Of a DNA stretch of 64,000 bases, positions 6,531 through 31,179 are shown piece by piece. This stretch comes from a virus (lineage: Duplodnaviria > Caudoviricetes). A program made the position numbers and the translations under genes. The DNA is taken from IMG/VR virus record IMGVR_UViG_2791355130_000003, positions 6,000 to 69,999 of that record; one strand, written 5' to 3'. Numbering within the stretch: position 1 is the first letter of the stretch; every line of letters starts with the position of its first letter. The notes beneath the pieces were generated by a model that had not been told where the DNA came from, ran no database searches, and was given only the letters and a program-made list of their open reading frames with translations.

Positions 6531-6565
6531 ATCAATGCGGTAGCTCAAAACGAATTCGTGCGAAA

Positions 6566-6613: not shown

Positions 6614-6623
6614 AAACCCGGCC

Positions 6624-6860: not shown

Positions 6861-7089
6861 CCCGAGATACGATCAGCACGGTTCCTCGTTCCGTCCGAAA
6901 TTGGTCGGCGCGTTCAACAACTTCCCAGGCCGCAACTCCAAGCGGTTTCCAGCAATCATCGTCGTGGGCCATCGGCTTTCCCCTTGCGGTTGTAGCGATG
7001 ATGGCGGGGAAATTGTTGGATGTGTCCGACAAGGCATCCGAGAATCCCGATGGGTCGTCGTTCCTTCTCCTGTTTTTTGTGAGGAATCG

Positions 7090-11655: not shown

Positions 11656-12134
11656 ACGTCCAACCCTTCTTGATCGGCGACGGCTGGATCGAGGTGCTCG
11701 ACGGCAACGACACTGCGCGCGACATCTTCGACCGCCACTATTCCCGCTATCGCTACGCCGACGGGCGGCAGCCGGCGTTGTTCGTCGGCCCGGGCGAAAA
11801 GCTCGTCCTGCTCACGGCTGACGCCGGCGCGGTTTCGGCTTGGCGACGCGAGCGGCACCGCTTCGATAATCAGCAAGGCGTCAACTGCGCGATCTTCCGT
11901 CGAGAGACCGGTGAAGTCGCAAGCGATCTGCTTGCCGCCGCAATGGCGATCGTTTGGCAGCGCTGGCCGGGCGAGCGGCTATTCACCTTCGTCGATCCCC
12001 GCGAGGTCGAGCCCACATGGCGCGCAGGACGACCGACATGGGGCCATTGCTTCTATCAAGCGGGCTGGCGCTACGCTGGCATCACGAAAAAACGGCTGCA
12101 CATTTTGGAATGCCGGCCGGAGTGGGTGAACTGA
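11652..12134 (+). CDS. Mom-like / GNAT-fold DNA modification protein
   Basis: GTG start overlapping the MTase stop; FDRHYS, FVGPGEKLVL, NCAIFRRE, FTFVDP, GHCFYQAGW motifs. Confidence 0.65.
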   Translation: MNVQPFLIGDGWIEVLDGNDTARDIFDRHYSRYRYADGRQPALFVGPGEKLVLLTADAGAVSAWRRERHRFDNQQGVNCAIFRRETGEVASDLLAAAMAIVWQRWPGERLFTFVDPREVEPTWRAGRPTWGHCFYQAGWRYAGITKKRLHILECRPEWVN

Positions 12135-12819
12135 TGCCTGCCTACCGCAGCTCGGCTGAGGCCGATATCCGAGATGCCGCTGTGGCCAAGATCCGCCAGC
12201 GCCGCCCCAATGCCAGGATCATCCATGAGATCAACGTCAGCTCGCATGGTCCCAACCGCATCGACGTTCTCGCCGTCGACCGCGCTGAGATCATCGCCTG
12301 CGAAGTGAAATCGGCCAAGGACAAGCTCGACCGCCTGCCGGCACAGGTCGCATCGATGTTCGGCGCGGCGCATCACGTCATCGCCGCCATCCACGAAAAA
12401 TTCCTGGTCGAGCAGGAACCAACCAGTGGGCGGCCCACGAGGAGCGCGACGGGAAATTCTTCATGCGCAACGTGCCCGAGGGGGTCAGCCACAAATGCGA
12501 AATCTGGGTGTACCCGGAGCGCAGGCGCGCCTTGCCGACCGCCAACCACGATCATCTCGAAAAATGGGCGCTGCCTCACCCTGTGTTCGAGCGCCCTCTT
12601 CCGGCAAGCGCTCTCGATCTCTTGTGGCGTGACGAGCTGCAACAGCTCTGCTCTTCGTTGCGTGTCTCCGCCACGCGCCAGTCTGTCATGACTGACATGG
12701 TCGCGGCCTTGCGGTGGCACTGCACCGGCAAGGAGCTGACGCGCGGCATCTGCCGACTCCTTCGAGCCCGCCAGTGCAAGGAAGCCGATCCCGAGATCAT
12801 CGAAAGGACTGCCGCATGA
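12134..12819 (+). pseudogene. PD-(D/E)XK nuclease-like protein split by a frameshift near 12417
   Basis: IIHE...RIDVLAV...ACEVKSAKDKLDRLP.Q in one frame; continuation NQWAAHEERDGKFFMRNVP...LDLLWRDEL in another. Confidence 0.7.
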
Positions 12820-13091
12820 ACCACTTCGCGGGCTTCACCACGCCGGTCGTGGGTGGTCATCACGCCATGCTGCGCTTTGCCGAGGACGGCCGCGCCGAGC
12901 CGGTGCTTGGCCCCGGCGGCGAGCCGAGGATATTCCCGACCGAGGTGGAGGCATGGAAGGCCGTCACCGAAAGCCTGTTGCGCTACTTCAATGGGCATAT
13001 GCGCCGTGATGGCGCAACCATCACCAGCGCCCGCGACGCGGCCGAACGCATCTTTCGAAAGGGCCGGATGATTCCGGTGGAGCACCGCTGA
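12816..13091 (+). CDS. Hypothetical phage protein
   Basis: MNHFAGF start, ATGA coupling. Confidence 0.7.
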   Translation: MNHFAGFTTPVVGGHHAMLRFAEDGRAEPVLGPGGEPRIFPTEVEAWKAVTESLLRYFNGHMRRDGATITSARDAAERIFRKGRMIPVEHR

Positions 13092-13363
13092 TGTCAGGAT
13101 TTCGCGAAGGCTGGGCTCTCAAATCGCCAACGGCCGTTACCACACACTACTTTCGCCGGCGCGGTCTCGGACTCGCCGTATCTCTCTGCGGCTCCCAGGA
13201 TGCGCCGGCCGGGTGGCTCATGGAAAATTCGGGCGCCGGCCAATGCGAACGTTGCGCCACGGTGCGGGCGAAGGAACTCGCCAGATTGGACGTTGTGCCA
13301 CCAGAGGCGGCCGAGGACGAGCGCGGCGACCAACGAGCGTGCGAAGGGAAGGCCGGCGACTGA
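13091..13363 (+). CDS. Small putative Zn-binding protein
   Basis: H...SLCG...CERC; last gene of the rightward operon. Confidence 0.6.
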   Translation: MSGFREGWALKSPTAVTTHYFRRRGLGLAVSLCGSQDAPAGWLMENSGAGQCERCATVRAKELARLDVVPPEAAEDERGDQRACEGKAGD

Positions 13364-13393
13364 CGCGCGCTGGCGAGGCCTCTACACTCGACG

Positions 13394-13429
13394 AAAAAAA
13401 TGGGGCAGCGGAGACCAATCCGCTGCCCC
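13394..13429 (-). terminator. Rho-independent terminator of the leftward accessory cluster
   Basis: GGGGCAGCGGA-ttggtc-TCCGCTGCCCC followed by ATTTTTTT on the minus strand. Confidence 0.85.
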
Positions 13430-13470
13430 TCCCTACCACAGCCGCCGGCCGCAGCCGGCGGTGCGGATTC
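13394..13470 (-). ncRNA. Candidate 3'-UTR-derived antisense sRNA (hairpin - seed CUGUGGUAGGGA - terminator)
   Basis: 8-bp hairpin 13442-13461, 12-nt unpaired seed 13430-13441 complementary to the repeated leader motif, 11-bp terminator stem plus U7. Confidence 0.6.
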
Positions 13471-14322
13471 CTACACCAGCATCGAGCGCGCATGTGCCTG
13501 GCGCAGCTGCGACTCCATCGAACGGATGGAGCGCGACGCCGCCGCCAGCGTGTCGGCCCATTTGTCGGCCTTGGTGGGATCGACCGACTTCAAGGCGATG
13601 CACTCGCCGTCCTTGAAGCCGCCGGCGATCGCGGCGATGATCCGCTCGACCGTCTTCTCCATCCTGCTCATGGCGGCGATATCGTCCTTCGACGGCTCCG
13701 GCCTGTCGTCGTCGAACATGCCGCCCTGCTCGATCCTGTCGCGGACGGCTTGCGCCGCCGCCTTGATGCTCGACCAGTCTTTTAGCTTGCCGCTGGAGAA
13801 CAGCTTCACGATGTTGACCTGATCGGCCGTGGGGAGGTCGACGAGGTCGTTTGCATGGCCGAGCGGGAAGGCACCGCTATCGACCAGCTTCTGGATCGTC
13901 TCGTCCAGATTAAGCAGCGCCGTGCGGGCCTTGATGCGCGTCGGCTGGACGCCGATGTCCTTCGCCAGCTGCTCGACCGTCCAGCCGCGGTCGATCATCG
14001 CGTGAAACGCCCGCGCTTCCTCCAGCGGCTTGATGTCGGCGCGGGCGAGGTTTTCCACGATCGCCTGCAGCGCCATCTCATTGTCGTTGATCTTCACGAC
14101 CTCGCAGAGAATGTCGGCCGCCTCGATCAGCTGGTGAGCGCGCCAGCGGCGCTCGCCGCCGACGATCATGAACTTGCCGTCGACCGGGCGAACCGTGATG
14201 GCCTGGATAAGGCCGCGCTCGCGGATCGATTCCGCCAGCTCGCGAAGCTTCACCGGGTCGAAATGCTTGCGCGGCTGGTCGGGGTTCGGGATCACCTGGC
14301 TGAGGGGGATACGCTTCTTCAT
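13471..14322 (-). CDS. ParB/RepB/Spo0J family protein
   Basis: PNPDQPRKHF, LAESIRERGLIQAITVRP, GGERRWRA, ENLARADI.PLEEA, HTH. Confidence 0.92.
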   Translation of the reverse strand: MKKRIPLSQVIPNPDQPRKHFDPVKLRELAESIRERGLIQAITVRPVDGKFMIVGGERRWRAHQLIEAADILCEVVKINDNEMALQAIVENLARADIKPLEEARAFHAMIDRGWTVEQLAKDIGVQPTRIKARTALLNLDETIQKLVDSGAFPLGHANDLVDLPTADQVNIVKLFSSGKLKDWSSIKAAAQAVRDRIEQGGMFDDDRPEPSKDDIAAMSRMEKTVERIIAAIAGGFKDGECIALKSVDPTKADKWADTLAAASRSIRSMESQLRQAHARSMLV

Positions 14323-14383
14323 GGTCTTGGTCTCCGTGGTAGGGATTGAGGGCAAAACGCCGCCCCGCAGGGCGGCGCTGTAA

Positions 14384-14623
14384 TCAGGGGGCAACTTCGA
14401 GGCCGAGGTAGCCGGTCGCTACCTGTTCGGCGAAGTTCGCGCGGGCATGTGCGCTGGCCCACACCTTCGCGTCCGACAAGCTCATGGCGGGAGAGAAGAA
14501 GGTCTCGACCTCACGGTCGCAGCTCTCGTCGATGATGATGAAGCCCCAGCCGCCATATCCCTTCGGCTTGCGGCCATGGGAACGCTCGTAGAGGGTGGTG
14601 TAGATTTCGATGGGCTTAGGCAT
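14384..14623 (-). CDS. Hypothetical protein (SHGRKPKGYGGW motif)
   Basis: Preceded by leader motif, operator and promoter. Confidence 0.75.
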   Translation of the reverse strand: MPKPIEIYTTLYERSHGRKPKGYGGWGFIIIDESCDREVETFFSPAMSLSDAKVWASAHARANFAEQVATGYLGLEVAP

Positions 14624-14665
14624 GGTCTGGTCTCCGCGGTAGGAAATTTCTTAGGAATATCAGGA

Positions 14666-14694
14666 ACTTAGTTTGTAACCGATCTGGTTACAAG
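14666..14694 (-). promoter_or_regulatory. Sigma70 promoter CTTGTA-N17-CTAAGT overlapped by an operator (14674-14692)
   Basis: Resembles the rhizobial CTTGAC-N17-CTATAT consensus; operator TGTAACCGATCTGGTTACA. Confidence 0.75.
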
Positions 14695-14701
14695 TGGGTT
14701 A

Positions 14702-15031
14702 CTAAGAAAAGTTTCTGACCAGTTCTGCAGCGCGTTGCGGAAATGCCTTTGCGACTGATCGTGTCCAGATCGTCGCTCGATAGCCCTGCCCGCAATCGAG
14801 ATCGCAAGAGAGACCGCCGACTCTTGTTATGCGCCATCCATCCGGCATCGGCTCACCAGCGAGCCAGAGGATGCACCGACGCGCGTCGTCGCGCCGGGCG
14901 AAGTCCTCCGCAACTCGGTCGTGGTAGGCTGTAAGGGAGTACCAATCGCCGCCGTCGCGCTCCGTGTAATAGCCCGGCGCCAGCGACTTGATTGCTTCTA
15001 TCAGTTCGTCGGAGGTGCGAAGGTCAGCCAT
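14702..15031 (-). CDS. Hypothetical protein
   Basis: MADLRTSDEL start, coupled. Confidence 0.65.
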   Translation of the reverse strand: MADLRTSDELIEAIKSLAPGYYTERDGGDWYSLTAYHDRVAEDFARRDDARRCILWLAGEPMPDGWRITRVGGLSCDLDCGQGYRATIWTRSVAKAFPQRAAELVRNFS

Positions 15032-15266
15032 TTTCCTGGCCCTCCTGCACCTCGCATGCGCTGTCGAGGATTTCGACCCCCGCCGGCGACTGTCCCGGGT
15101 CGAGGAGAGAGCGAAGATGGTTGCCGACGTCCTCGACGGGAAATTCTGCCAGGTACTCTTCCTCGCTGTCGTGCGAACCATCGGCGACCGCGCGCCTTGC
15201 GGCTGCATTTGCCAATGCAAGGGTATCGAGGACCCTCACATAGATCGAGACTTCGGCGGTGATCAT
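15024..15266 (-). CDS. Small acidic hypothetical protein
   Basis: GGAGG SD, MITAEVSIYVRV. Confidence 0.65.
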   Translation of the reverse strand: MITAEVSIYVRVLDTLALANAAARRAVADGSHDSEEEYLAEFPVEDVGNHLRSLLDPGQSPAGVEILDSACEVQEGQENG

Positions 15267-15526
15267 CCTAGCCTCCGTTTTGAAGCCGCGAGAAAATCGG
15301 CCGTGCAGATCGTGAAGTCGCCGGCGGCGCCGCCGCCGATGTGGGCATGATGATACTCGTCCAGCTCGTCGAGCAGAGGGCGGATGTCGCCCCAGGTCGG
15401 ATAGGCTTCCTGGTTGCTCTGCCAGAACTCCCCCAGCGTGCCGGTCCACTCCGGCTCGCCGAGGTCGAGCGGGTTCTTCACATGGCCCACGAACAGATGG
15501 ACGGTGGTGGTGATGTCGATCGTCAT
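15263..15526 (-). CDS. Hypothetical protein
   Basis: GAGGAG SD, 87 aa. Confidence 0.7.
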   Translation of the reverse strand: MTIDITTTVHLFVGHVKNPLDLGEPEWTGTLGEFWQSNQEAYPTWGDIRPLLDELDEYHHAHIGGGAAGDFTICTADFLAASKRRLG

Positions 15527-15537
15527 GACTACTCTCC

Positions 15538-16065
15538 TCAGTCCATGTTGCAGCGAACGAGCGCGGTCGCGTAGTCGATGCCGGTCTCTTCGGCATAGAT
15601 TGCGGCCTGATCGCCGGGACGATTGGTGGCGGCCGCCGTCGTCGACGGCTCGGCTTTGGCGATGGCTTCGGCCACCATCGCATTGCTTTTCAGGCTTGGG
15701 TCTCGGATGACGCAGAGTTTGAGCGCCGCCAGGATGTCCGGCCGCGCCCGTTCGCGCGGGATCGCGGCGCGCAAACTGGCCAGGATGTCACCGACGCCCT
15801 TCTGCAGCGGATCACTCTCGAAGCCGGAAATGAACGACTCGGCCCGAGTCAGAGCGTCGACGGTGTCGCTGGCGTGATCGAACGGGAGCCTTTCGACGAG
15901 CTCGTCGCGGAGCGTGGCGGCGGACTCGAGCGTGAGTGTTTCACACGCCCGCGACCCGCCCTTCGGGCCATAGAACGAAAGCACGACTTCGCCCTTGCCT
16001 CGCGCGGCGCTGTTCAGCGATTCCATCGTGCCCTTGGCGGCGATGCTGATGTAAATCGTGTCCAT
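15538..16065 (-). CDS. Hypothetical protein
   Basis: MDTIYISIAA start, TGATG coupling. Confidence 0.65.
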   Translation of the reverse strand: MDTIYISIAAKGTMESLNSAARGKGEVVLSFYGPKGGSRACETLTLESAATLRDELVERLPFDHASDTVDALTRAESFISGFESDPLQKGVGDILASLRAAIPRERARPDILAALKLCVIRDPSLKSNAMVAEAIAKAEPSTTAAATNRPGDQAAIYAEETGIDYATALVRCNMD

Positions 16066-16565
16066 CACATTTCCCCTTCGATCTTGTCGGCCAAGGGCGA
16101 AATAACCTCGTCCCAGATCGCATTGCAGATTTCGTTGTCGGCGTGGTCGGACACGACATCGTAGCCCGAATTGCCATAGATCAGCTGGAACCAGCCGAGC
16201 TTGTCGCCGGTCGGGCTCCGCAGATGAATGCCGTCCTCGTCGGTCGAGAACAGCGCCAGCATGATCGCCGCCTTGTCGTCGGACCGCCTCACCACCCAAT
16301 CCTCGCTGTCGTAGACGGAAATCAGGTAGCCCCGGTCGAGGCAGGCCTTCACCAGCGCGCGGGCGATGCGGCGCTCGGCGCGGATGCGGTCAGCGGTCTC
16401 ACGCGATCGGCGCGCCAACGCCTGCTCGATCGCTTCGTCGAAGCCGGTCTTCGGCTCGCCCATCTCGGCATCTTCGGCCAGCCGGGCGGACAGCGCCTGG
16501 TTGCCCGAGGCGGTGAGAGCATTGCAGATCGCCAGCATCTCAGCCGGCGTAACGTTGATGGTCAT
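16065..16565 (-). CDS. Hypothetical protein (GWFQLIYGNSGYDVVSDH motif)
   Basis: Leader motif upstream. Confidence 0.75.
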   Translation of the reverse strand: MTINVTPAEMLAICNALTASGNQALSARLAEDAEMGEPKTGFDEAIEQALARRSRETADRIRAERRIARALVKACLDRGYLISVYDSEDWVVRRSDDKAAIMLALFSTDEDGIHLRSPTGDKLGWFQLIYGNSGYDVVSDHADNEICNAIWDEVISPLADKIEGEM

Positions 16566-16610
16566 GGTCATTCTCCGTGGTAGGGGTGGATCTCGAGGAA
16601 GGCGCGGGGA

Positions 16611-17213
16611 TCAACCCCACGCCAGTCCCCAGCGCTTGGCGCAAACCGGCCCGTAGCCTACATCGATGGAGCGGTGGTCGGTCAGCTCGATCGCGCAGAA
16701 ACAGCAGTTGCCGGTGCGCTTGCCGTGGGCGGCGCCGGCCTTCGAAGGGTTCTCGGCCAGAGCGGTCAGAGCCGAGACCAAGCCGTCGGGACCGGGCGAC
16801 CGACGCGAGCGGGTGAACTCGCCCTTGCGGTCGATGCGGCCGTACCAGTCGCGGCTCTCGAACGAGCCCGGCGACGAGACGTTGATCTGGCCGGCGTGAG
16901 CGGAGCGCGCACCAGCGAGAGCAAGGACGACCGTCTCGCCGTTGACGTCGAAACGGATCTTCGGATGCTTGAGCTTGTTGGCGATCGCCGTGTCGAACAG
17001 CGCGATCAGGCCATCCATCGAGCCGACCTTGGCCTTTGGCGCCGCGGGCTCGCCGGCTTGTGCGCGCTGGGTCAAAGTCGCCACCCAGGGCCACTGCCGC
17101 TCCGAGAGACTCGAGCGGCTGTCATACTGGTGCAGGAGGGATGCGGCGAACTCCGCGTCGCGGCCGTGCAGCTTCGGGGCTGACTGGCGCAGAGCTTCGA
17201 TTTCGAGGTTCAT
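16611..17213 (-). CDS. DUF6011-type Zn-finger protein
   Basis: C-terminal CCFCAIELTDHRSIDVGYGPVCA; N-terminal EFAASLL.Q...LSERQW. Confidence 0.75.
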   Translation of the reverse strand: MNLEIEALRQSAPKLHGRDAEFAASLLHQYDSRSSLSERQWPWVATLTQRAQAGEPAAPKAKVGSMDGLIALFDTAIANKLKHPKIRFDVNGETVVLALAGARSAHAGQINVSSPGSFESRDWYGRIDRKGEFTRSRRSPGPDGLVSALTALAENPSKAGAAHGKRTGNCCFCAIELTDHRSIDVGYGPVCAKRWGLAWG

Positions 17214-17430
17214 GTCTGGTCTCCGTGGTAGGGATTTCCCAGATCGGTGCGGCTCCGGCGGTTATGCTAGGCCTGGCCCGTCCCCGGTTCGATTTCACTC
17301 GGCCGGTCAGTTTGACGAGAAGTCACCAATCGCCGGCCCGTTGCTGAAAGGGGAGTTCCGGCGAAGGCTGCAGCGGTGAAAGGAAACGGCTTTCTGCTGC
17401 ACCGATCTGAATTTCTAAGTTACTTCAATA

Positions 17431-17459
17431 ACTTAGCTTGTAACCAAATCGGTTACAAG
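17431..17459 (-). promoter_or_regulatory. Sigma70 promoter CTTGTA-N17-CTAAGT with operator (17439-17457)
   Basis: Near-duplicate of the 14666-14699 segment; TGTAACCAAATCGGTTACA. Confidence 0.75.
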
Positions 17460-17506
17460 TGGGTGCAGGCAAAAAAGAACAATAATTTCAATGACTTCGG
17501 TGGCGG

Positions 17507-18103
17507 TCAGTTCACCGGCTTGAACCGGGATTCCAGGACGGCGCCGGAAATCGAGCGCTGGTCGTCGCCGCATTGCACGAGTGCCTGGTCGACGTGTTCC
17601 GGATTGACGCCGATCACCTTCCAGACGCGGCCCTGCTGGTCGGGCGCTTCGGCGCCGAGGTAGGGCGCGACCTGGAGGGGCTGCGGTGGCTGACGCAGGC
17701 GGTATTGCGCCGGCAGCTTGGGATGGTGCCAACCACAGCCCTCGGCCTCCAGGCCATGTTCGAACACTTCGAGCCGGAGCTTTTCTTTCAGCCAGACCGA
17801 GATGTAGGCGCGATGGCAATACTGGTTGTCGGTCGGGGCCTCGTAGCAGAGCAGGGCGACGTCCCTGCCGCCCGAGAGGTCTTCCATCTTGGCGACGATC
17901 CGGCCAGGATTAAGCCTGTCGAGTCCTTCGAAGTAGAGCTGCTTATACTCGCGCTCGCTGGCGGTCTTGAACCATTCGCCTGGGGCGAGTTCCGGCATCT
18001 TGCGATAGCCTGCCGGGTATCCTCGCGGCGTTCCCCTGGACACCCCGATCTTCTGGATTTCGGGCGGCAGCTTGGTGAACCAGGAGCTGGTGAAAATGCG
18101 CAT
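17507..18103 (-). CDS. DUF488-family protein with C-terminal extension
   Basis: MRIFTSSWF, IGVSRGTP, LAP, VALLCYE, CHR motifs. Confidence 0.75.
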   Translation of the reverse strand: MRIFTSSWFTKLPPEIQKIGVSRGTPRGYPAGYRKMPELAPGEWFKTASEREYKQLYFEGLDRLNPGRIVAKMEDLSGGRDVALLCYEAPTDNQYCHRAYISVWLKEKLRLEVFEHGLEAEGCGWHHPKLPAQYRLRQPPQPLQVAPYLGAEAPDQQGRVWKVIGVNPEHVDQALVQCGDDQRSISGAVLESRFKPVN

Positions 18104-18186
18104 CTTCGTCTCTTTCGGTGGTAGGGCTTTGGACAGGTCCAAATGTAAATCCGGTGAACTTCTCAAGCAACCAAAATGACACTGTG

Positions 18187-18205
18187 TGTTACCATTTTGG
18201 TAAGG
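18187..18205. promoter_or_regulatory. Operator-like palindrome
   Basis: TGTTACCATTTTGGTAAGG in an AT-rich spacer upstream of the DUF488 gene. Confidence 0.6.
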
Positions 18206-18210
18206 TTGCC

Positions 18211-18660
18211 TCACCGGTACATCTGCATTAGGTATGGGTTCTCTCCAGCGCCTTCGGGCGCTGTCCTGTGGTAGGGATGGAGAGGAAGGCCGATCAGGGG
18301 CAACCCGGTCGGCCTTTGATATTTTCGGCGTGGCTGTGGCGCCTCGAAGCGCACTTCGGGATAATTGACCCACGCCGTCACCGTCTCGAAACTGATGGCG
18401 CGCGGCAAGCTCTTGACGTCGTCGAGCAGCGTTCGTCCTGCCAGGATCCCATTGCCCGCGAACTCGGCGCCCGAGCGGAAAAACTGGAACGTCCTTCGCC
18501 ATGGTCCGGTTGAGAGCCAGAGGTCCAGGCCCGGCGCCAACTCCACGCGGTCGAGGCTGTCGCTCTCAAGAAGTTCGCAGAAGAGCTGGTGCCCCAGAGG
18601 GCGCGGCGTCTGGTAGTCAATGGCGCGCCGGAGTGTGGAATCGATCAGGATGAAGCGCAT
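18211..18660 (-). CDS. Hypothetical protein
   Basis: MRFILIDS start; FAGNGILAG motif. Confidence 0.55.
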   Translation of the reverse strand: MRFILIDSTLRRAIDYQTPRPLGHQLFCELLESDSLDRVELAPGLDLWLSTGPWRRTFQFFRSGAEFAGNGILAGRTLLDDVKSLPRAISFETVTAWVNYPEVRFEAPQPRRKYQRPTGLPLIGLPLHPYHRTAPEGAGENPYLMQMYR

Positions 18661-19001
18661 TGCAGTTCTCGTGCCTCGAGGCGTTGGTTGATGGTGGGGA
18701 GCGTCTCGCTGGCGAACAATTCGAGCCACCACTTGATCAACTCGGCCTGGTAGCGGTCGTCGGCCGCACGATGGCGGGGCTCGCGTAGCTGTCGCTCGAT
18801 CCAGTCAAGCCGGTCGCGAAGCTCCGGCCGGTAGAGCAGATTGCGGAATGCATCTGCGAGCCGCATGTCCAGCGCGTAATCCCCGGTGCAGCCGAGGGGC
18901 GACCAGTCGCTATGCCAGGACGACCACATCTCGAGGGCCTGGCTGATGGTGGGGAGCCGGCGCCGCCGCTCCTCCTCGTCTTCTGGTAACGGGCGAAACA
19001 C
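18645..19001 (-). CDS. Hypothetical protein
   Basis: GTG start after the leader motif. Confidence 0.65.
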   Translation of the reverse strand: MFRPLPEDEEERRRRLPTISQALEMWSSWHSDWSPLGCTGDYALDMRLADAFRNLLYRPELRDRLDWIERQLREPRHRAADDRYQAELIKWWLELFASETLPTINQRLEARELQCASS

Positions 19002-19036
19002 TTTTGGACTCCGTGGTAGGGATAACGATCCTATGA

Positions 19037-19055
19037 TGTAACCAATTTGGTTACA
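19037..19055. promoter_or_regulatory. Consensus operator palindrome
   Basis: TGTAACCAATTTGGTTACA. Confidence 0.8.
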
Positions 19056-19066
19056 ATATGGTCAAG

Positions 19067-20632
19067 CTAAAAGTAATTTCTGCGGCCGTCCTTCCATAGC
19101 TTGACCGTGACGGTGTTCACGTAGGTCCCGACCTCGGCGAAGGATCCGTGCGGCAGATCGCGGAACTGGCCGTTCAGCCTCTCGATCAAGGCCCGGAAAG
19201 CGATGGCCTTGCGAGTTTCGCGAAACTCGGTGCCGGCCGACATGATGGCGGCGAGGCACCCGCCGTCTTCCAGGAAGTCGAGGGCGTGCACCACATGGTC
19301 GATATCGCGTTCCATGTCGAACGGCGGGTTCATGATGATGCGATCGTATTTTCCCGTCACGGAGGGCCGCAGCGCCAGGAAGTCGGCGGCGTACACCTTG
19401 CGGAATGTGCCCTGCGCCTCGAGCGCGGCGGCGAGCGCTGGCTGGAGCTCCACGCAATCGACCTGGTTGTCGAAGCGGTATTCCTTGCGCCAGCGGTCCA
19501 TACGGGCCTCGTCCCCGTAGCCGTAGTGATCGGCGAAATCCTTGATGCTGGTGAGGCAGCGGCGCGCCAGATTGCCGGTGCCGGCGCTGGGCTCCAGGAT
19601 CCGTAGGCGCGGCTTCTCGATCGGCTGGAGGAGGGGGATACCTTTGAGCAACTCCTCGGCCGCGGCGTCGGGCGTCGGGAAGAAACCGAAGTTCTTCGCC
19701 GGCGTGGTCTTCCGGTTGCGGAACAGATCGTCCTGCTCGCGCGTCTGGCCGTCGCCGATCACCTCGCCATAGTATTCGGCGAGCATCTTGTTGACCCTTT
19801 CCACCAGGTCGTCACGCGTGAACCAGAGATGCGCGTTGCCGTTCTTGTAGGCGACGATCCTGAAATACTCGCCGCGATGTTCGGACTGCTGAGGCTGGAA
19901 GCCCCTGCGCTCGGCGCGCACCACGTTCTCGATGCTGTTGTAGGACGGCTTCTTGCCGTCGAGGACAGAGAAGGTGCGTTCGATATCGCGCACGGTGTCC
20001 CAAGTGCCGCCCCACGAAACGTGGCCGTGGTCGCGGTCGAAGGCATAAGTCAGGATCATGCGACTGCCGACCTTGAAGCCGTCGTGAGACCGGAACCGGC
20101 GATCCAGCTTGGAGAAGGCCGTCGCTATGCCGCGCCGGAAGATCATCTCGGATTCGCCGGCCCACTTCTCGATAGTGGCGTACACGTTGTCGACCGTGAC
20201 CGGGGGAATCCCCATGAGCTCGTCGAGGTTGACCAGCTCCTTGCCGTCGCCGCGGTCATAGCGCTCCGGCACCCACCTCAACGTGTCGCGCAGCTCGTCC
20301 TTGGCCTGCTTGTCCATGAGGACTTCAAGGTCCGTCATCTTCACCAGATAGTGCCAGCACGAGATGTCGATGAGACGGATGGCGGTACGCTTCCACTGCT
20401 CGGCGTCAGGCAAATCGACGGCCTCGAAAAAAGCCCTCACCTCGCGGTTGTCGCGGTCGCCGTACCTGGAGCAGGCATGCTCGCCAGCGGCCGCCTTCCA
20501 GAGAGCGGCCGCCTTTTTCAATTCCCGATCAGCCTGCTGGATCGAGGCGAATGCGCCATGATAGGCGGCCACGGCTGCATCGCGATAGGCGACGATCTGC
20601 TCGATCGTGTTGCGAGGGATCAGCGCGTTCAT
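19067..20632 (-). CDS. DUF4942-domain DNA methyltransferase
   Basis: YFRIVAYKNGNAHLWF (DUF4942-like); FFPTP, LEPSAGTGNL, MNPPF, F.EVGT.V.T. Confidence 0.88.
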   Translation of the reverse strand: MNALIPRNTIEQIVAYRDAAVAAYHGAFASIQQADRELKKAAALWKAAAGEHACSRYGDRDNREVRAFFEAVDLPDAEQWKRTAIRLIDISCWHYLVKMTDLEVLMDKQAKDELRDTLRWVPERYDRGDGKELVNLDELMGIPPVTVDNVYATIEKWAGESEMIFRRGIATAFSKLDRRFRSHDGFKVGSRMILTYAFDRDHGHVSWGGTWDTVRDIERTFSVLDGKKPSYNSIENVVRAERRGFQPQQSEHRGEYFRIVAYKNGNAHLWFTRDDLVERVNKMLAEYYGEVIGDGQTREQDDLFRNRKTTPAKNFGFFPTPDAAAEELLKGIPLLQPIEKPRLRILEPSAGTGNLARRCLTSIKDFADHYGYGDEARMDRWRKEYRFDNQVDCVELQPALAAALEAQGTFRKVYAADFLALRPSVTGKYDRIIMNPPFDMERDIDHVVHALDFLEDGGCLAAIMSAGTEFRETRKAIAFRALIERLNGQFRDLPHGSFAEVGTYVNTVTVKLWKDGRRNYF

Positions 20633-20769
20633 GGCTTCGCCTCAACCGGCTTGGCGCTCACGGCGGCGTGCATCTTCTGGAAGGTGAAGACGTCCTTGCG
20701 CTCGATGACGATCTCGTAGCGCTTGCTGCCGTCGGGCAGCGTGAACTCGTATTCAACTGGCTTGGTCAT
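20629..20769 (-). CDS. 46-aa protein (below the ORF-track cutoff)
   Basis: MTKPVEYEFTLPDGSKRYEIVIERKDVFTFQKMHAAVSAKPVEAKP; leader motif upstream, ATGA-coupled to the MTase. Confidence 0.7.
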   Translation of the reverse strand: MTKPVEYEFTLPDGSKRYEIVIERKDVFTFQKMHAAVSAKPVEAKP

Positions 20770-20847
20770 TGGTCTGGTCTCTGTGGTAGGGATTGGTGGG
20801 CGACGGGACCTCTCCCGCCGCCCTATCGAAGGGATCGTTTGTCTCTC

Positions 20848-21000
20848 TCAGTGCATCGCGCCTCCTTCTGCTGGTGCGTCAGCTTCCACGTCCGCTTCGG
20901 CCGCCTGGAGGTCGGCGAGCCGGTCGCGGCAGGAAGGGCAGCGGCAGCTTTCACTGCTGTCGAAGGGAAAAGGGGTTAGGCAGTCGTCGCAGTAGGGCAT
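20848..21000 (-). CDS. 50-aa Zn-ribbon protein
   Basis: MPYCDDC...CRCPSC; leader motif upstream. Confidence 0.65.
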   Translation of the reverse strand: MPYCDDCLTPFPFDSSESCRCPSCRDRLADLQAAEADVEADAPAEGGAMH

Positions 21001-21040
21001 CGTTTCAACCGTGGTAGGGGAAAACCTTGTAACCACAGTA

Positions 21041-21069
21041 ACTTAGTCTGTTACCAATTTGGTTACAAT
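21041..21069 (-). promoter_or_regulatory. Promoter ATTGTA-N17-CTAAGT with operator (21049-21067)
   Basis: TGTTACCAATTTGGTTACA plus a half-site at 21028. Confidence 0.75.
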
Positions 21070-21123
21070 GCAACCACGGACAAAAAGTCGTGTTCGCCCA
21101 AGTGCGGTTGTCGGGAGGCGGCT

Positions 21124-21270
21124 CTAGCCGTCGCGATCACGCTTTTCGCGGCTGTAGTCGATGGCCGCCCAGATGACACAGCCGACGGCGACCAACACGC
21201 CCAATGTGCGACTGGCGGTGAACGCCGAAATGACCAGGATCAAGACGTATGCGAGTGCGCCGGGTGTCAT
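21124..21270 (-). CDS. 48-aa membrane peptide
   Basis: MTPGALAYVLILVISAFTASRTLGVLVAVGCVIWAAIDYSREKRDRDG, read manually. Confidence 0.5.
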   Translation of the reverse strand: MTPGALAYVLILVISAFTASRTLGVLVAVGCVIWAAIDYSREKRDRDG

Positions 21271-21291
21271 GTCTTTCAAGGGTTGGTCCTT

Positions 21292-22155
21292 TCAAAAGGC
21301 GAATGCGAATTGGCCGGAGGCTTCCTGTCTGGAAGCGACCCCGAGGGGACGGAGACCGGGTAGGGCAGCGATGAAGCCGCCCGGCTGGTAGGCGGGATCA
21401 TTGCGGCGCTCCTCACGCAGACGGCTATCGTCAGCGTCGTGCCGCTTGTTGCCCTGCCAATAGGCAAGGCCGAAAGGCGGGTTGTGGAGCTTGCATTTTG
21501 CGGCCGTCTTGCCGTGATGATCGATAAGCAGGTTCTGCTCCATCACGATCGTCAGCATCTCGTCGACGGTCATTGCCTCCTCGACGAACCAGCGTTCGCG
21601 GGAGAGCCCGCCGCCGGTGAAGGATCGGTAGCCGGTCTCGCTGAAAAACGGCTGATCGAGGTCGATCACGCGACCGTCGAGGCCGACGCCGCCGAAGACG
21701 CCCGGGTAGCGCACGTCGGTGCGGCAACCGTGAATGGTCAGCATGAACCGCCCGGGCTGGCCGTGCATCGGGATTTCGCCATCGGGCGCGGCCAGTTGTT
21801 TGCCGAGCCAAGACGACGCCGAGTTCCAGCAGTTGAAGCGGGAGCGGCAGCGCGGGGGCCAGGAACGGCCGGAACCGTCCGCGCGCTCCTCCCGGCCGCC
21901 GTATTCCTCAATCCGGTAGAGCGTCTCGACACATGCCTCGATCACTAGCTCGTAGGGAAGGCGGCCGGGCTTGTCGCAGGCCATCATCGCGGCGTGGTAG
22001 TGGTGGAGGGCTTCCCGAGCGATTCCGACCAGATATTCATCGGACCCGTCGCGCAGCATGGCGACATTCTCGGCGATCTCCTGACCGCGTTTCTCGGCCT
22101 CGATCTGCCAAGCGTGCTTCTTGGCTGGTGCTTTCGCCTTGGCGGTCTTAGCCAT
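21292..22155 (-). CDS. KlcB-like protein (plasmid kilC-type)
   Basis: YHAAMMACD, AAPDGEIPMHGQPGRF, DLDQPFFSETGYRSF motifs recalled from KlcB. Confidence 0.55.
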   Translation of the reverse strand: MAKTAKAKAPAKKHAWQIEAEKRGQEIAENVAMLRDGSDEYLVGIAREALHHYHAAMMACDKPGRLPYELVIEACVETLYRIEEYGGREERADGSGRSWPPRCRSRFNCWNSASSWLGKQLAAPDGEIPMHGQPGRFMLTIHGCRTDVRYPGVFGGVGLDGRVIDLDQPFFSETGYRSFTGGGLSRERWFVEEAMTVDEMLTIVMEQNLLIDHHGKTAAKCKLHNPPFGLAYWQGNKRHDADDSRLREERRNDPAYQPGGFIAALPGLRPLGVASRQEASGQFAFAF

Positions 22156-22648
22156 TGCCGTACCTCGGAAGTTCTGCGAGCGACGAGAGGGGCGGCAACC
22201 CCATGCGCTCGCGAGATCGGTTGATGATGGGGAGAGGGTCGAAACCCTTGACGCCCGGACCTCGGTAGACCCATGGCGGGTTCTCCGGGTCGAGCCGGCC
22301 GACGTCGTAGCTGTGGAGCATGTCGGCGAAATATTCCGGCGTGCCCGGGTAGGGAGCGCTATTCCAGAGTGCCCGCAGGATTTTCCGGATGTTGTCGCCG
22401 TAGGCGAAAAGCCGGCTCCTTGCACGACGCCAGTTCGCGGCGCGGCGGTCGCGAGTATTCTGCTCCCAGATCACCGCTTGCTCGGCGCGCTGCGCCATAA
22501 CGGTGTCGGCGTCTGGCTGCTCCTCTGCGATCATCTCGGAAAAGAGCGGCAGTTTCTCTCGCTCAAGGCGCTGCTTTCGGGCCAAGGCGAGCCGCTTTCG
22601 CCTCGTGTCTTCGAACGGGCCATATCGGCGTGTCCGGAAGTGGCGCAT
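22148..22648 (-). CDS. Conserved hypothetical protein typical of plasmid leading regions
   Basis: PFEDTRRKR...RKQRLEREKLPLF...WRRAR...YPGTPEYFADMLH. Confidence 0.65.
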   Translation of the reverse strand: MRHFRTRRYGPFEDTRRKRLALARKQRLEREKLPLFSEMIAEEQPDADTVMAQRAEQAVIWEQNTRDRRAANWRRARSRLFAYGDNIRKILRALWNSAPYPGTPEYFADMLHSYDVGRLDPENPPWVYRGPGVKGFDPLPIINRSRERMGLPPLSSLAELPRYGNG

Positions 22649-23382
22649 CAGAGCAACCTCCCCTCGGCCACCTGCCAGACGCCCTCGCCTAGCGGTTCGA
22701 ACGGACCGCGCTGTAGGGTCTGGCGGACCTTCGCCTTCCAGTTCGGATTGCGTTCGGACTTCGGATTCTCGGCCAAGGCGCGGTAGAGATCGTCGAGCCG
22801 CACGGCCGCGCCGGCGCGCTGCATCACCTTCAACACCTCGTCGACCCACGAGCCGACGGAGGCAAAGCCGAAGATCAGCGAGCGCAGGCGCAGCGGCACG
22901 AAAGCGCCGGGAATGCCGCTGGCCGCAAGGCGGTCAGCATCGTCGGCGCCATAGGCGCAGAACACCGACGGCGCGCCGGCATTGGCCTTTGCTCGAGTCC
23001 CTGCGGCATCGTGGAAATGCAGCCGCCCTTCCATGAACAGCAGCGCATCGGCCGCGCGCCAGACGCACTCGTGGAACACCTGCGTTTCGGTGCGGGCGAA
23101 GATCAGCGCGATTCCATGGGCGTGCTCGGCCATACGGCCCATCCAGCGGCCGATCACGTTGTTCGAGTATGGCGGGTTGAGCCACACGCGACCGTGCCAG
23201 GGCCGGGCTAGACCGTTGTCGGCGATGGTGTAGTGCTGGCGCGCCATGTCCCACGGCCGATCGAGGGGAGCGCAGGGATCGAGGTCAAAACTCTCGGCGC
23301 CACCGAGCGCGGCCAGGAGGGCGGGAGGGGTCAGCCAGACGTCGGTGCCGGCCGCCGCGGACTGATGGCTACCGATGGGCAT
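22648..23382 (-). CDS. Phage N6-adenine methyltransferase (Dam family) with C-terminal winged-helix-like tail
   Basis: DVWLTPP, FDLDPCA, DNGLARPW.GRVWLNPPYS, ALIFARTET. Confidence 0.9.
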   Translation of the reverse strand: MPIGSHQSAAAGTDVWLTPPALLAALGGAESFDLDPCAPLDRPWDMARQHYTIADNGLARPWHGRVWLNPPYSNNVIGRWMGRMAEHAHGIALIFARTETQVFHECVWRAADALLFMEGRLHFHDAAGTRAKANAGAPSVFCAYGADDADRLAASGIPGAFVPLRLRSLIFGFASVGSWVDEVLKVMQRAGAAVRLDDLYRALAENPKSERNPNWKAKVRQTLQRGPFEPLGEGVWQVAEGRLL

Positions 23383-23623
23383 GGCGCGCCTCCTCGGTCA
23401 GCCTGCGCAGCACGTCGCCGACGCTGCTGATGGAACTCTCCAGCCGCGCCTCGTCGAGCTCGGCCAGATCGATCTTGGTTTCGTTCCCGTCTTCATCGAT
23501 CATCGTGAAGACGCTTGCGGTGGAGTCCGGCTTGCGCAGGATATCCCACGCCCAGCGTGCGGCCGCTTCGGGATCGCCTTCGCCCTCGTAGTCGATCTCC
23601 CATGTGACTAGATAGCGGGCCAT
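23369..23623 (-). CDS. Hypothetical protein (YLVTWEID motif)
   Basis: Coupled ORF. Confidence 0.7.
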   Translation of the reverse strand: MARYLVTWEIDYEGEGDPEAAARWAWDILRKPDSTASVFTMIDEDGNETKIDLAELDEARLESSISSVGDVLRRLTEEARHAHR

Positions 23624-23991
23624 CAGCGCTGCTCCCGCTTGAGCATGTCGCGCGCCGCTCCGCGCGCCATGGGTCCGTCGCCGAAAGCGCCGTCTGCGAT
23701 CTCTTGTAATTCAGCAGTGCGCGGGTCAGGTCCGTCGCAGGCGTCTTCCTCCTCTTCGTCCACGTCCTCGCGGGTGAGCTGGTCGAACGTCCACTCGTCG
23801 CCCTCCTCGTCGAGGAAGACGATCTTGCCGTTGCGCTTGGCGGTCTGGATATCGTTCCAGAAGATTTCGGTGCCGCCGGCGTATTCCGGCTGGCCCGTCT
23901 CCGGGTCGATGTCGCTGATGTGAGCGCGGCCGGTCAGCCGCTCCAATGTTCCGGTGATCGGGCTTCCGGTAGGTGATAGGTAGTTGGCCAT
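23623..23991 (-). CDS. Acidic hypothetical protein
   Basis: MANYLSPTG start after the leader motif. Confidence 0.7.
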   Translation of the reverse strand: MANYLSPTGSPITGTLERLTGRAHISDIDPETGQPEYAGGTEIFWNDIQTAKRNGKIVFLDEEGDEWTFDQLTREDVDEEEEDACDGPDPRTAELQEIADGAFGDGPMARGAARDMLKREQR

Positions 23992-24120
23992 GGTCTCTGA
24001 TCTCCGTGGTAGGGGATTGTTGCCAAAATGGTTGCGAACGCCGCTTGACAAAAAGCCGGGGGGAGAGGCAGAAATCGCGCAGCCTGATATTGCTTCGCGA
24101 TTCGGCCGGTCCCTGAAAAA

Positions 24121-24372
24121 TCAGTTGGTGTTGAAGCCGTCCGGCGAGGGCTGAATGCCAGCCTCTTTCGCCACAAAGCCCACGACGTCGAGCACGTCGT
24201 CAGAGCTTAGTTTCTCAATGGTTTCGGCGAAGCGCCGCTTGAAATAGGTCTGGTGCTCGGCACCGGCGTAGCGGGCCAAGCCGATGGCAGCGGCGAAGGT
24301 GATCGCTTCCAGGCGAGCGCCGCCGAAGCCGGACTTCTGATGAAGGCTGGCCGCGAGGTCGTTGAGGGTCAT
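24121..24372 (-). CDS. Hypothetical protein (first gene of the leftward cluster)
   Basis: Leader motif and tandem operators upstream. Confidence 0.65.
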   Translation of the reverse strand: MTLNDLAASLHQKSGFGGARLEAITFAAAIGLARYAGAEHQTYFKRRFAETIEKLSSDDVLDVVGFVAKEAGIQPSPDGFNTN

Positions 24373-24396
24373 TGGTCGGTGATCCGTGGTAGGGAA

Positions 24397-24434
24397 AGTA
24401 ACCGTTCTGGTTACAAGTAACTTATTCGGTTACA
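24397..24434. promoter_or_regulatory. Tandem operators at the divergent accessory/packaging junction
   Basis: AGTAACCGTTCTGGTTACA followed directly by AGTAACTTATTCGGTTACA. Confidence 0.7.
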
Positions 24435-24471
24435 CCTCCGATGCAAGTGAAAAAGTGAGGCCCTCGGCGTT

Positions 24472-25785
24472 ATGTTTCAAGGCGTTGTGCCGAAGGAATG
24501 CATCGCGCAAATCCTTCGCGTGTCTGAGGTCGACAAGTGGGGCCGGGTCTATAATTGCTGCTCCGGAACGTTCCGGTTCGAGCAGATCACCCTCGCCACT
24601 TTCCCCGGCGTTGAGATGCACTCCAACGACGTCAGCCTCTACTCGTCAGCCATCGCCGGTTACGTGCTGGGCAAGCCGATAGACTATGAGTTTCACGGCG
24701 CGCTCGACTTCGTGAACGAGTTCGACTTTCGGGAGCCCGATCAGCGCCTCGCCGCGCTGGCCGTCGGCTTCAATCTCGGCCGCTTCGCTGGCGGCAAGGC
24801 GAACGCCTACAAGACCAGCCATCGCGAGCACCTGGTTGCGAACTTCGCCAGCTATGTCGAGCGCACCCTGGACAAGGTCCGCAAGCTTCCGGGCATGATC
24901 CCGATCAAGAGCTATTCGCCGCGCGACTGGATCCTGCATCTCGAGGAGGCGATCGACCGCAAGGCCGCGATCTTCTCCTACCCGCCGTTCTACAAGGGCG
25001 GCTACGAAAAGATGTTCGAGTTCCTGGCCGAGAACATCAGATGGGAAGCTCCCCGATATGAGCTGTTCGACCCCAAGGCGCTGCGCGGTCTCATCGAGCG
25101 CGTGCGGCAGGCGGGCGTCCCCTATTGCATCCTCTCGGACCAGATTTACGACGATCTGAAACCGGAGTTGGAATTCGTCTCCGGCCGGGGCCACCCGCAC
25201 TACTGCTACGTGTCGACCGGCAAGTCGTCCTACCTGCAGCTCGTGCCGCGGTCGGCCCCGTTCCGCTACAAGCCAATCGACCTCGACAAGATCAAGCCGG
25301 ATTCGGTCGTGACGATTGGCCGGGCCGACGCTGCCCAGATGACGTTCCTCAAGGACGTCTACCTCAAGAAGGGCATCACCCACACACCCGGCATGGTGAA
25401 CTACCTGGTGCGCGTCGACGACATGCTGGTCGGCGGCCTGATCTACAACCTCGACAAATTCGCGAAGCGGTCGATTTACCTGCTGTCCGACTTCGCCATC
25501 TCGCGCGAGGGCAGACTGTCGAAGCTCGTCACCAGGCTCGCCTGCAACGGCGAGCTGCTGCGCGACATGGGCAAGCGCTTCATCGACCGTTTCGACAAGG
25601 TGCAAACCTCGGCGTTCTCGGACCATCCGGTATCGATGAAATATCGCGGCATCTTCGAGCAGACCAAGCGCGAGGAGATCGACGGGCCGGAAGGCAAGTT
25701 CCGCCTGCATTACGTCGGCGCCCGCATCGACGAGACGCCGCAACAAGCGTTCGAGTGGTGGTATGGCAAGCACTTCAAGCGTTGA
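24472..25785 (+). CDS. Putative DNA modification enzyme: divergent adenine-MTase-like domain plus GNAT-like C-terminus
   Basis: CCSGTF..EQ, SNDVSLYS, FSYPPFYKGGYEK (motif IV-like); C-terminal YLVRVDDMLVG...YLLSDFAI...RLSKL. Confidence 0.6.
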   Translation: MFQGVVPKECIAQILRVSEVDKWGRVYNCCSGTFRFEQITLATFPGVEMHSNDVSLYSSAIAGYVLGKPIDYEFHGALDFVNEFDFREPDQRLAALAVGFNLGRFAGGKANAYKTSHREHLVANFASYVERTLDKVRKLPGMIPIKSYSPRDWILHLEEAIDRKAAIFSYPPFYKGGYEKMFEFLAENIRWEAPRYELFDPKALRGLIERVRQAGVPYCILSDQIYDDLKPELEFVSGRGHPHYCYVSTGKSSYLQLVPRSAPFRYKPIDLDKIKPDSVVTIGRADAAQMTFLKDVYLKKGITHTPGMVNYLVRVDDMLVGGLIYNLDKFAKRSIYLLSDFAISREGRLSKLVTRLACNGELLRDMGKRFIDRFDKVQTSAFSDHPVSMKYRGIFEQTKREEIDGPEGKFRLHYVGARIDETPQQAFEWWYGKHFKR

Positions 25786-31018: not shown

Positions 31019-31179
31019 CGAGGCTCTCCGTCTCTAGGCGGGAGCTCAATATCTCTCAGCCACCGACGCCCAACGCATGCTGTTGCCGGTGATGGGACAC
31101 TATGGACCTGAAAGCTGGAAAGGTCCAATCTTGCGGTGCGGTGGCTTCGAATTTTCGGCTTCGTTGGGTGAGACGCGGC

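Follow-up and report, generated by a model that had tools for sequence, protein, structure and literature searches.

Leader tags and candidate antisense RNAs that may read them in a rhizobial prophage

Why should many small and accessory genes of one temperate phage begin with nearly the same few nucleotides, and is there something in the same phage that reads them? The question is raised by a stretch of 64,000 nucleotides (IMG/VR record IMGVR_UViG_2791355130_000003, positions 6,000 to 69,999; hereafter the window), which corresponds to G000:C26:307935-371934 in a genome of 6.18 Mb and 63% G+C whose closest relatives are Mesorhizobium (L001 is Mesorhizobium sp. WSM3860; handles of this kind are our own, for genomes, contigs and loci). 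The window holds a myovirus-like prophage in which ten minus-strand genes carry a common leader tag, and the first-pass annotation had suggested that one RNA, made behind the parB-like gene, could pair with all of these leaders. Here we describe the tag and two structured elements, A and B, that contain its complement and accompany it in other rhizobial phages. We give about an even chance to the reading that these elements are phage-encoded antisense RNAs which occlude the shared leader together with the ribosome-binding site.

The tag in the prophage and in other phages

At no more than one mismatch, CCCTACCAC has 22 matches in the window as compared with 6.3 expected (standard deviation 2.3), a number that none of 100 shuffled sequences reached. 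Exact copies number 11, with 10 on the minus strand (14336-24394) and 1 on the plus strand (13431-13439). Nine of the exact minus-strand copies and the variant TTCCTACCGC (14636-14645) lie 11-15 nt 5′ of the start codons of open reading frames (ORFs) of 46-283 codons, and the shared motif before ten minus-strand genes that had been noticed at first pass is therefore borne out. Before these starts the tag reads tCCCTACCAC(G/A)GAG, the usual layout being tCCCTACCAC-GGAGA-N5-9-ATG, and in 10 of 10 cases it adjoins the ribosome-binding site and the start codon. Only ~10-22 nt are common to the leader copies, and the sequence further upstream differs between them. Among the late plus-strand genes of the window none carries the motif. 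The tenth exact minus-strand copy (18268-18276) has no start codon downstream; it had been counted as an eleventh leader copy at 18265, and while the copy is real, it is better read on the plus strand as part of element B.

All ten tagged starts are on the minus strand, and are ATG except where stated. From right to left they are 24372 (tCCCTACCAC; leader 24370..24395, 83-codon ORF 24121-24372), 23991 (cCCCTACCACGGAGA; 23989..24015, ORF 23623-23991), 21000 (cCCCTACCACGG; 20998..21020, 50-codon ORF), 20769 (tCCCTACCACAGAGACCAGACCA; 20767..20792, a 46-codon ORF overlapping the start of the DUF4942/methyltransferase gene 19067-20632), 19001 (GTG, tCCCTACCACGGAGT; 18999..19022, ORF 18645-19001), 18103 (gCCCTACCAC; 18101..18127, DUF488-like ORF 17507-18103), 17213 (tCCCTACCACGGAGACCAGAC; 17211..17234, DUF6011 ORF 16611-17213), 16571 (cCCCTACCACGGAGA; 16569..16586, ORF 16065-16571), 14623 (the variant form, TTCCTACCGCGGAGACCAGACC; 14621..14645, ORF 14384-14623) and 14322 (tCCCTACCACGGAGACCAAGACC; 14320..14345, the parB-like gene). 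The earlier remark that variation among the copies preserves pairing through G-U wobble holds for the leader of 14623, where both deviations (C to U, A to G) are wobble-compatible with the seed of element A, and for the A/G alternation after CCAC, but these are too few events for a test. A further full leader, cCCCTACCACGGAGAgtgagcATG, was observed before a gene at G000:C26:305301-305313 (minus strand), 2.6 kb before the left edge of the window. Tagged genes thus occur outside the 13.4-24.4 kb cluster as well, and parB, which had been taken as the last gene of the cluster, is last in this minus-strand block but not the last leader-bearing gene.

In the whole G000 genome CCCTACCAC occurs 21 times, 12 of these in this prophage, and CCTACC[AG]CGGAG is found in the prophage only (7 of 7). 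CCCTACCACGGAG was found in 12 of 401 family genomes and in 9 of 202 genus genomes, nearly always as a single match; in these two sets several copies on one contig are seen only in G000 (6), G489 (5; the locus is the same as L001) and G307 (3). As the host copies are rare and the multi-copy contigs few, we regard the tag as a property of the phage and not of the host.

The distribution among phages was obtained from an IMG/VR scan for CCCTACCACGGAGA, which gave 98 stretches; contigs with several matches were retrieved. In the records G597-G606, L082 and L114, CCTACCAC precedes 3-19 ORF starts per record, always on the gene strand, as compared with 0-3 per record for a reversed-pattern control. 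In total the tag is present in at least 11 rhizobial phage lineages, and an anti-leader element is found in 10 of 11. The genes behind the tag differ from phage to phage. In G599 and G601 the distance from the tag to the Shine-Dalgarno (SD) sequence ranges from 0 to 12 nt, and the tag occasionally lies between the SD and the ATG; it is therefore separable from the ribosome-binding site itself. The leaders of L082 conserve TACCACGGAGA, the SD half, and the three bases upstream of that half vary. Rhizobium phage RHph_X3_2, with only 2+1 copies of CCTACCAC in 50 kb, is without the tag system. Megablast of 13300-24500 against phages and plasmids gave no match, and the nearest cultured phages by TerL are ~42-45% identical.

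Complements of the tag beside terminator hairpins

Element A is a candidate anti-leader RNA in the 3′ untranslated region (UTR) of parB (13394..13470, minus strand), between the parB stop codon (13471-13473) and the U-tract. As described at first pass, an inverted copy of the tag, the 12-mer seed CUGUGGUAGGGA (13430-13441), lies here 30 nt after the stop, followed by a terminator hairpin of 11 pairs (9 of them G-C) with the loop UUGGUC (13402-13429) and by the U7 tail ATTTTTTT (13394-13401). A first hairpin is predicted at 13436-13466, and the fold of the whole element is much more stable than that of its shuffles (z = -5.3). The seed had been called unpaired. This stands for UAGGGA (13430-13435), which is predicted to be free, but not for the other half, since the minimum-energy fold lengthens hairpin 1 by pairing CCGCA with UGUGG.

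The element is kept in L081 (ParB 95% identical). In L083 (ParB 97%), G597 and G600 both hairpin stems are altered, yet the position of the GGUAGGG linker, the UGGUC loop and, upstream, the AUCCG with which the 5′ part of the seed pairs are kept. All 5 elements of this type (type 1: window, L081, L083, G597 and G600) have the same GGUAGGG and the same terminator loop, UGGUC, and because core and loop stay constant where the stems have changed, the inverted seed cannot be put down to chance. The gene that precedes the element in G597 is not parB. A parS function for hairpin 1 was considered and rejected, its sequence being different in phages whose ParB proteins are 95-97% identical. In L001 and L082, on the other hand, GGUAGGG is absent, and the loop of the first hairpin, UUCUCCGU(GG), complements CCACGGAGAA, the SD half of the leader (the CCACGGAGA half). 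In L082 the half matched by this type-2 loop is exactly the half that the leaders conserve. We estimate roughly that any one 3′ region of 80 nt would contain, by chance, a 9-mer able to pair with a portion of a 22-nt leader with a probability of ~0.004.

Some further sites of this kind were observed. A comparable hairpin in G598 (30961-31050, plus strand) has a loop containing UCUCCGUGGU, and one in G599 (~9140-9200, plus strand) a loop containing UCUCCGUG; both are anti-SD plus anti-CCAC, and either may be a type-2 element. In the window, UCCGUGGU, the complement of ACCACGGA, stands at 21073-21080 (minus strand) directly after a T-run in the intergenic region 21036-21125 and is kept in L001 (3048) and L083 (2392). 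This could be a third, minor anti-leader site or a matter of chance.

The first-pass annotation allowed for one antisense seed only and missed a second anti-leader element, which is better conserved than element A. This element B (18238..18324, plus strand) is a candidate RNA of the antisense strand. It shares its DNA with the final ~38 codons of ORF 18211-18660 on the minus strand, and it lies divergent to the promoter/operator region that serves the gene with its start at 18103. Its predicted fold consists of an outer stem CUCUCC/GGAGAG, a small hairpin AGCGCC-UUCG-GGCGCU, the seed hairpin GUCCU-GUGGUA-GGGAU, which carries the anti-tag in a hexaloop (18268-18273) on a stem of 5-7 bp, and a terminator-like hairpin (18285-18317) followed by UUUGAUAUUUU, with a U-rich tract to 18325. 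The same architecture occurs in 9-10 lineages (window, L082, G597, G604, G606, L114, G598, G601 and G602, and more weakly in G603). In every case the element and the tagged genes are on opposite strands, and in at least 6 records the element is divergent from the leader/operator region of a tagged gene.

A covariance model (R1) built from five examples of element B also recovers it in G598, in G601 and in one further IMG/VR contig, all of them leader-bearing phage records, and at E ~0.15-0.18 it matches element A of the window and of L081. Over 151 genus genomes strong matches were found only in G000, G489 and G434; ten weak ones (E 0.0015-0.009) were discarded as ordinary terminators, with no seed and no CCTACCAC in their 20-kb flanks. 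In the alignment of element B 91% of the cells are paired, and 22 of 30 pairs show two-sided changes as compared with 9.4 in shuffled alignments (0 of 500 reach 22) and 7-14 in slid controls. The structure also has a preferred strand. Of the 10 elements, all 10 form the more stable seed hairpin when the anti-leader strand is folded, and 9 contain G-U pairs, which would turn into C-A mismatches if the opposite strand were read; 10 of 11 rows have U-G as the closing pair. For the terminator-like 3′ hairpin, the anti-leader strand gives the stronger structure in 8 of 10. On reading by eye, a U-rich tract follows this hairpin in 7 of 9 cases, and a weak promoter-like pair, TTGCCT-N17-TAGGTA, lies 5′ of the element and recurs as TTGC(C/T)T ... 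TA(C/G)(G/A)T(A/T) in L082, G597 and G604.

The ORF overlapped by element B (18211-18660, 149 aa) has homologues in L082, G597 and G604, no Pfam or PHROG match, and no tblastn match among phages. From the sequence, the coding region and an antisense RNA gene appear to share the same DNA here. The frames that overlap the element in G598, G601, L114 and G606 look non-coding when read by eye.

The Infernal comparison with Rfam that had been recommended gave no family for either element; cmscan of 12000-26000 at E ≤1 returned only an Acido-1 fragment (20799-20822) of 23 bits, the gathering score being 50. A metagenome scan for the seed pattern gave, among the matches listed, at least 116 stretches with G+C of 0.30-0.70, of which none had two or more copies in leader orientation and 8 had one. 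These looked like chance matches, and the scan serves as a rough negative control only. It may be noted that GUGGUAG is also present in the D-loop of a tRNA-like gene of G000 (C26 ~301.8 kb) and in a tRNA-like stretch of G600 (~41.2 kb), which is a source of false seed matches; the likeness of the loop to a tRNA D-loop was treated as a coincidence.

Pairing with the leaders and the ways in which the tag may be read

With typical leaders either element forms 10-15 contiguous pairs that reach into the GG of GGAG, and with wobble several B elements cover the whole GGAG. When the unfolding of both partners is counted, the net cofold energy over the 10 leaders has a mean of -12.0 kcal/mol for A and -12.5 kcal/mol for B, as compared with -3.2 and -1.3 kcal/mol for 28 control starts (7 from the same block but without the tag, 21 from late genes; Mann-Whitney p ~2e-6). 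In the mechanism that we propose, the 5′ leaders of the early and accessory genes would be marked by UCCCUACCAC(G/A)GAG, a tag that merges into the ribosome-binding site at its 3′ end. The last part of the parB transcript (hairpin, (CUGUG)GUAGGGA, intrinsic terminator with its UUGGUC loop, U7) would supply element A, possibly as a stable RNA of 70-80 nt derived from the 3′ UTR, and an RNA from the opposite strand would supply element B, its GUGGUA hexaloop directly 5′ of its own terminator-like hairpin. In the cell, each of the tagged leaders could be paired over 10-15 nt with one or the other RNA, and the paired stretch would take in the first G's of GGAG. Such pairing would block ribosome loading and possibly invite RNase cleavage, so that repression would fall on the whole gene set together. 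Element A would then give feedback from the last early unit, and element B may act as a lysogeny or immunity-type brake.

The timing that had been proposed, an RNA made only after the whole cluster is transcribed, is not supported. A palindromic family TGTAACCA-N3-TGGTTACA has 24 half-site matches (≤1 mismatch) against 11.6 expected and marks six promoter-like regions. Inverted TGGTTACA/TGTAACCA half-site pairs lie at 6577-6613, 14674-14692, 17439-17457, 19037-19055, 21028-21076 and 24408-34, in AT-richer DNA upstream of tagged genes and within or beside the helix-turn-helix (HTH) gene at 5925-6872. To judge from their sequence, these sites resemble operators for a repressor, and the minus-strand block would be divided by them into several transcription units. 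With several operator-like promoter regions the block is probably not one operon, and element A would be made with its last unit.

Several observations weigh against the antisense reading. With 6 of its 12 nt predicted unpaired, the seed of element A is of limited accessibility, and its two exposed pieces, UAGGGA and UUGGUC, are on reading by eye in the wrong order for colinear pairing with one leader; half of the element B seed is likewise predicted in a stem. The cofold contrast is not independent evidence, because complementarity was what defined the elements, and plain RNAduplex energies, which are noisy in GC-rich DNA, fail to separate leaders from controls for A (p = 0.22). The flanks of the seeds form on average 5.26 contiguous pairs with the leaders of their own phage and 4.74 with those of others, with scattered ranks, so there is no phage-specific co-variation. 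The alignment that gave the covariation of element B was fitted to the model. In G000, L082, G597 and G604 the element lies inside the conserved C-terminal 38 codons of the ORF, where the motif CCCTACCAC encodes Pro-Tyr-His, and its conservation could partly be coding constraint. In G434 a homologue of element B (L226, G434:C11:110139-110225, minus strand; 55 bits) has the seed GUGGGAGG and the loop GUGGGA in place of GUGGUA, with only two or three degenerate leaders nearby (CCACGGAG, CCTGCCACGGAG) and none that compensate; this region may be a decaying prophage. Finally, G599 has 18-19 leaders and no recognisable anti-leader element.

The idea of an RNA complementary to the common leader, taken over from the first-pass annotation, is therefore upheld in part: the core is conserved in relatives, a loop takes its place in L001 and L082, and cofolding is favourable for 10 of 10 leaders, but the test of flank co-variation was negative. 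Qualitatively, both elements of L082 are shifted towards the leader half that L082 conserves. Two further counts add little. The 7-mers TGGTAGG (9 of 16 sequences), GGTAGGG (8 of 16) and GTAGGGA (8 of 16) rank at or near the top before predicted terminators, but they are tied with generic GC-rich words and the predictor is loose (662 predictions in 679 kb), so the ranking gets little weight. A census of hexaloop hairpins was not discriminating, with GTGGTA in 8 of 11 lineages but 44 hexamers reaching 8 or more.

Readings in which a protein recognises the tag are, taken together, a serious alternative to which we assign less than an even chance. The first of these is that the tag is read on the mRNA by an RNA-binding protein of phage or host, or by the ribosome, as a translational operator, enhancer or standby site, the inverted copies being by-products of structure or coding. 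The position beside the ribosome-binding site would suit such a reader, as would the variable spacing in G599 and G601, which makes the tag a separable one, and in G598 the tag can be enclosed in a small hairpin by the pairing CUCC...GGAG (read by eye). For the start-associated sequences (SAS) of mycobacteriophages, too, the function is called unknown, with RNA or protein factors both left open, in the portions consulted of PMC3203893, PMC11373665 and PMC12699233. We nevertheless hold this reading unlikely. It gives no account of why complements of the tag recur beside terminators, in conserved loop or linker placement, in 10 of 11 lineages. The best matches of the tag to 16S (7 nt) and 23S (8 nt) rRNA are at chance level, and since host genes do not carry the tag, a host factor would be left with no targets in the host itself. 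As for a phage protein, no ORF of the prophage has a tblastn homologue in more than 6 of 10 other lineages, where some records are fragments and distant homologues may escape. ParB was rejected as the general cognate protein, since it is missing from G597 (a record rated 100% complete) and from G601, both of which carry the tag and the elements.

The second possibility is a protein-binding site in the DNA. In mycobacteriophage L5, stoperators are oriented asymmetric sites at which the phage repressor blocks transcription. By analogy, a repressor-type protein could block transcription at the oriented intergenic sites of our prophage, and the inverted copy after parB could stop plus-strand read-through into the cluster. 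The tag does have the asymmetry, the intergenic position and the orientation along transcription of such sites, plus-strand ORFs run towards the block at its parB end, and a Cro/CI-type HTH protein is encoded at 5925-6872; moreover, Pope et al. 2011 (PMC3203893, in the part consulted) contrast the SAS with the L5 stoperators. The immediate contact with ribosome-binding site and start codon in all ten window cases argues against a DNA site, as does the element of L001 and L082, which keeps the CCACGGAGA half only and would not be the same DNA site. Inverted copies that sit in a hairpin loop or an inter-hairpin linker beside terminators, with covarying stems, are also not accounted for by a DNA site, and the palindromic operators already mark the promoter regions. 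The lack of an ORF homologous across all leader-bearing phages (at most 6 of 10, some records being fragments) counts here as well. On balance we consider this improbable. That the repeats are mere boundary sequences for recombination and module exchange between phages is very improbable. In favour of this are the tagged genes, which differ between phages, the different genes that element A follows, and the recombinant look of L001 at parB, where the first 50 residues of the protein find no match and the 3′ element is of the L082 type. Against it stand the length of 10-14 nt, which is little for homologous exchange, the strict strand bias and the fusion of the motif to the ribosome-binding site, and structured inverted copies are left unexplained.

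Gene setting and comparison with known systems

The tagged genes belong to a block of small and accessory genes that runs on the minus strand from 24395 to 13471 and includes a Dam-type methylase, the DUF4942 methyltransferase and the DUF488-like and DUF6011 genes, with the parB-like gene (13471..14322; ParB_N + HTH_ParB) as its final gene, whose stop codon is followed by element A. Divergent from it, the plus strand codes rightwards from 24472 for a DAM-like/GNAT-like protein, a ParB-like nuclease, the large terminase, portal, protease, major head protein, sheath, tape measure and baseplate. The start of this late operon (24472-26503), where the phage DAM-like/GNAT-like fusion protein and the ParB-like nuclease precede the terminase, together with parB in the minus-strand block gives the prophage two ParB-fold proteins, one per arm. 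An untagged and very hydrophobic ORF of 48 codons (MTPGALAYVLILVISAF...; 21125-21269, minus strand) lies between the 377-codon ORF 21292-22425 and an operator region. No tRNA gene is present in the window. About 6.1 kb to its left, the tRNA-like gene mentioned above (G000:C26 ~301,760-301,840, read by eye; D-loop AGCUCAGUGGUAGAGC, anticodon loop CUUGGUAAG) may mark the left end of the prophage and is probably its attachment site.

A number of known systems resemble parts of this arrangement. IncN CUP repeats are conserved upstream repeats of hundreds of bp that carry promoters, in contrast to the short shared stretch of the tag with its varying upstream sequence. The L5 stoperators share with the tag the orientation with transcription, but here a separate palindromic operator family is also present. 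In T4, the proteins RegA and RegB act on the initiation regions or GGAG of many early mRNAs and bring about their joint shut-off; one factor acting on many early mRNAs is what we propose as well, except that the partner here appears to be RNA. The CI RNA of P4 is cut from the operon that it controls and has two targets within that operon. P22 sar and lambda OOP are small phage RNAs that regulate phage genes by base pairing, and c4 of P1/P7, of immunity function, blocks translation through loops complementary to sites around the ribosome-binding site in its own operon (PMC12197685, parts consulted). P4 CI, sar and OOP have one or two targets, act in cis-antisense or by transcription termination, and have no shared leader tag; c4 has one target region (icd/ant) as opposed to the 10 or more tagged genes here, where there is also no Rfam match. 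Single-gene phage antisense RNAs such as c4, sar and OOP are thus long known, and the new aspect would be the common tag with its complementary RNA. In the literature, including the consulted parts of a 2025 review of phage small RNAs (sRNAs) (PMC12197685), we came across no phage in which a dozen unrelated genes share one leader tag and an RNA complementary to the tag is encoded as well; the literature on the motif and on sRNAs of rhizobial prophages yielded nothing on this system, though supplements may mention it. Element A further resembles Hfq-type sRNAs derived from 3′ UTRs (e.g. CisR on CTXphi; PMC13250501, part consulted) in that it lies between the stop codon and the intrinsic terminator of an mRNA, ends with a U-tail and has a seed more conserved than its surroundings, and it differs in that its candidate targets are genes of its own prophage.

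If the antisense reading is true, it would give a simple mechanism for the coordinate translational shut-off of early, accessory and anti-defence genes, and a bioinformatic rule for finding such regulons, namely a leader tag plus an anti-tag beside a terminator. The pair of tag and seed could also serve as a portable, orthogonal translational switch.

The closest analogue of the tag is the SAS of Cluster K mycobacteriophages, a 13-bp asymmetric motif with an SD core that lies 3-7 bp before 11-19 non-structural gene starts in one orientation and is essentially absent from the host (PMC3203893, part consulted). Our tag is likewise asymmetric, present in one orientation before many non-structural starts and rare in the host. 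According to the first-pass annotation SAS are not known to have such a cognate antisense RNA; a lack of any inverted partner would not agree with the report of one opposite-orientation copy, not at a gene start, in four K1 phages (Pope et al. 2011, PMC3203893, part consulted); the single exact opposite-orientation copy of our prophage (13431-13439, plus strand) is also not at a gene start. In Mycobacterium phage Anaya the inverted SAS (59870-59882) reads GGCCUCCUAUCCC on the gene strand of the 385-bp gp96-gp97 gap and is located in the apical loop of a long hairpin that another strong hairpin closely precedes (L354, 59800-59950), a layout that resembles the type-2 anti-leader hairpin of L001 and L082. 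The rightmost 9 kb of Pixie gave no inverted copy at ≤3 mismatches. The two tags differ in sequence (GGGATAGGAGCCC as SAS consensus against tCCCTACCAC(G/A)GAG) and in host phylum, and are the same kind of feature in different sequence families; also, no antisense RNA is proposed for SAS in the consulted part of PMC3203893, as against two anti-tag elements, one per strand, here. The role of SAS is still undefined in papers of 2024-2025 (PMC11373665, PMC12699233, in the parts consulted), and the antisense reading would provide a testable hypothesis for it. Tentatively, we can go one step further and suppose that start-associated leader tags in general are RNA operators regulated by small phage anti-tag RNAs, which would have arisen independently in phages of Alphaproteobacteria (the CCCUACCAC tag with elements A and B) and of Actinobacteria (Cluster K1 SAS with the one inverted copy in a hairpin loop). 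If this doubtful extension is true, one seed would silence or time the early, accessory and anti-defence genes of a temperate phage, and the purpose of SAS, a question open since 2011, would be answered.

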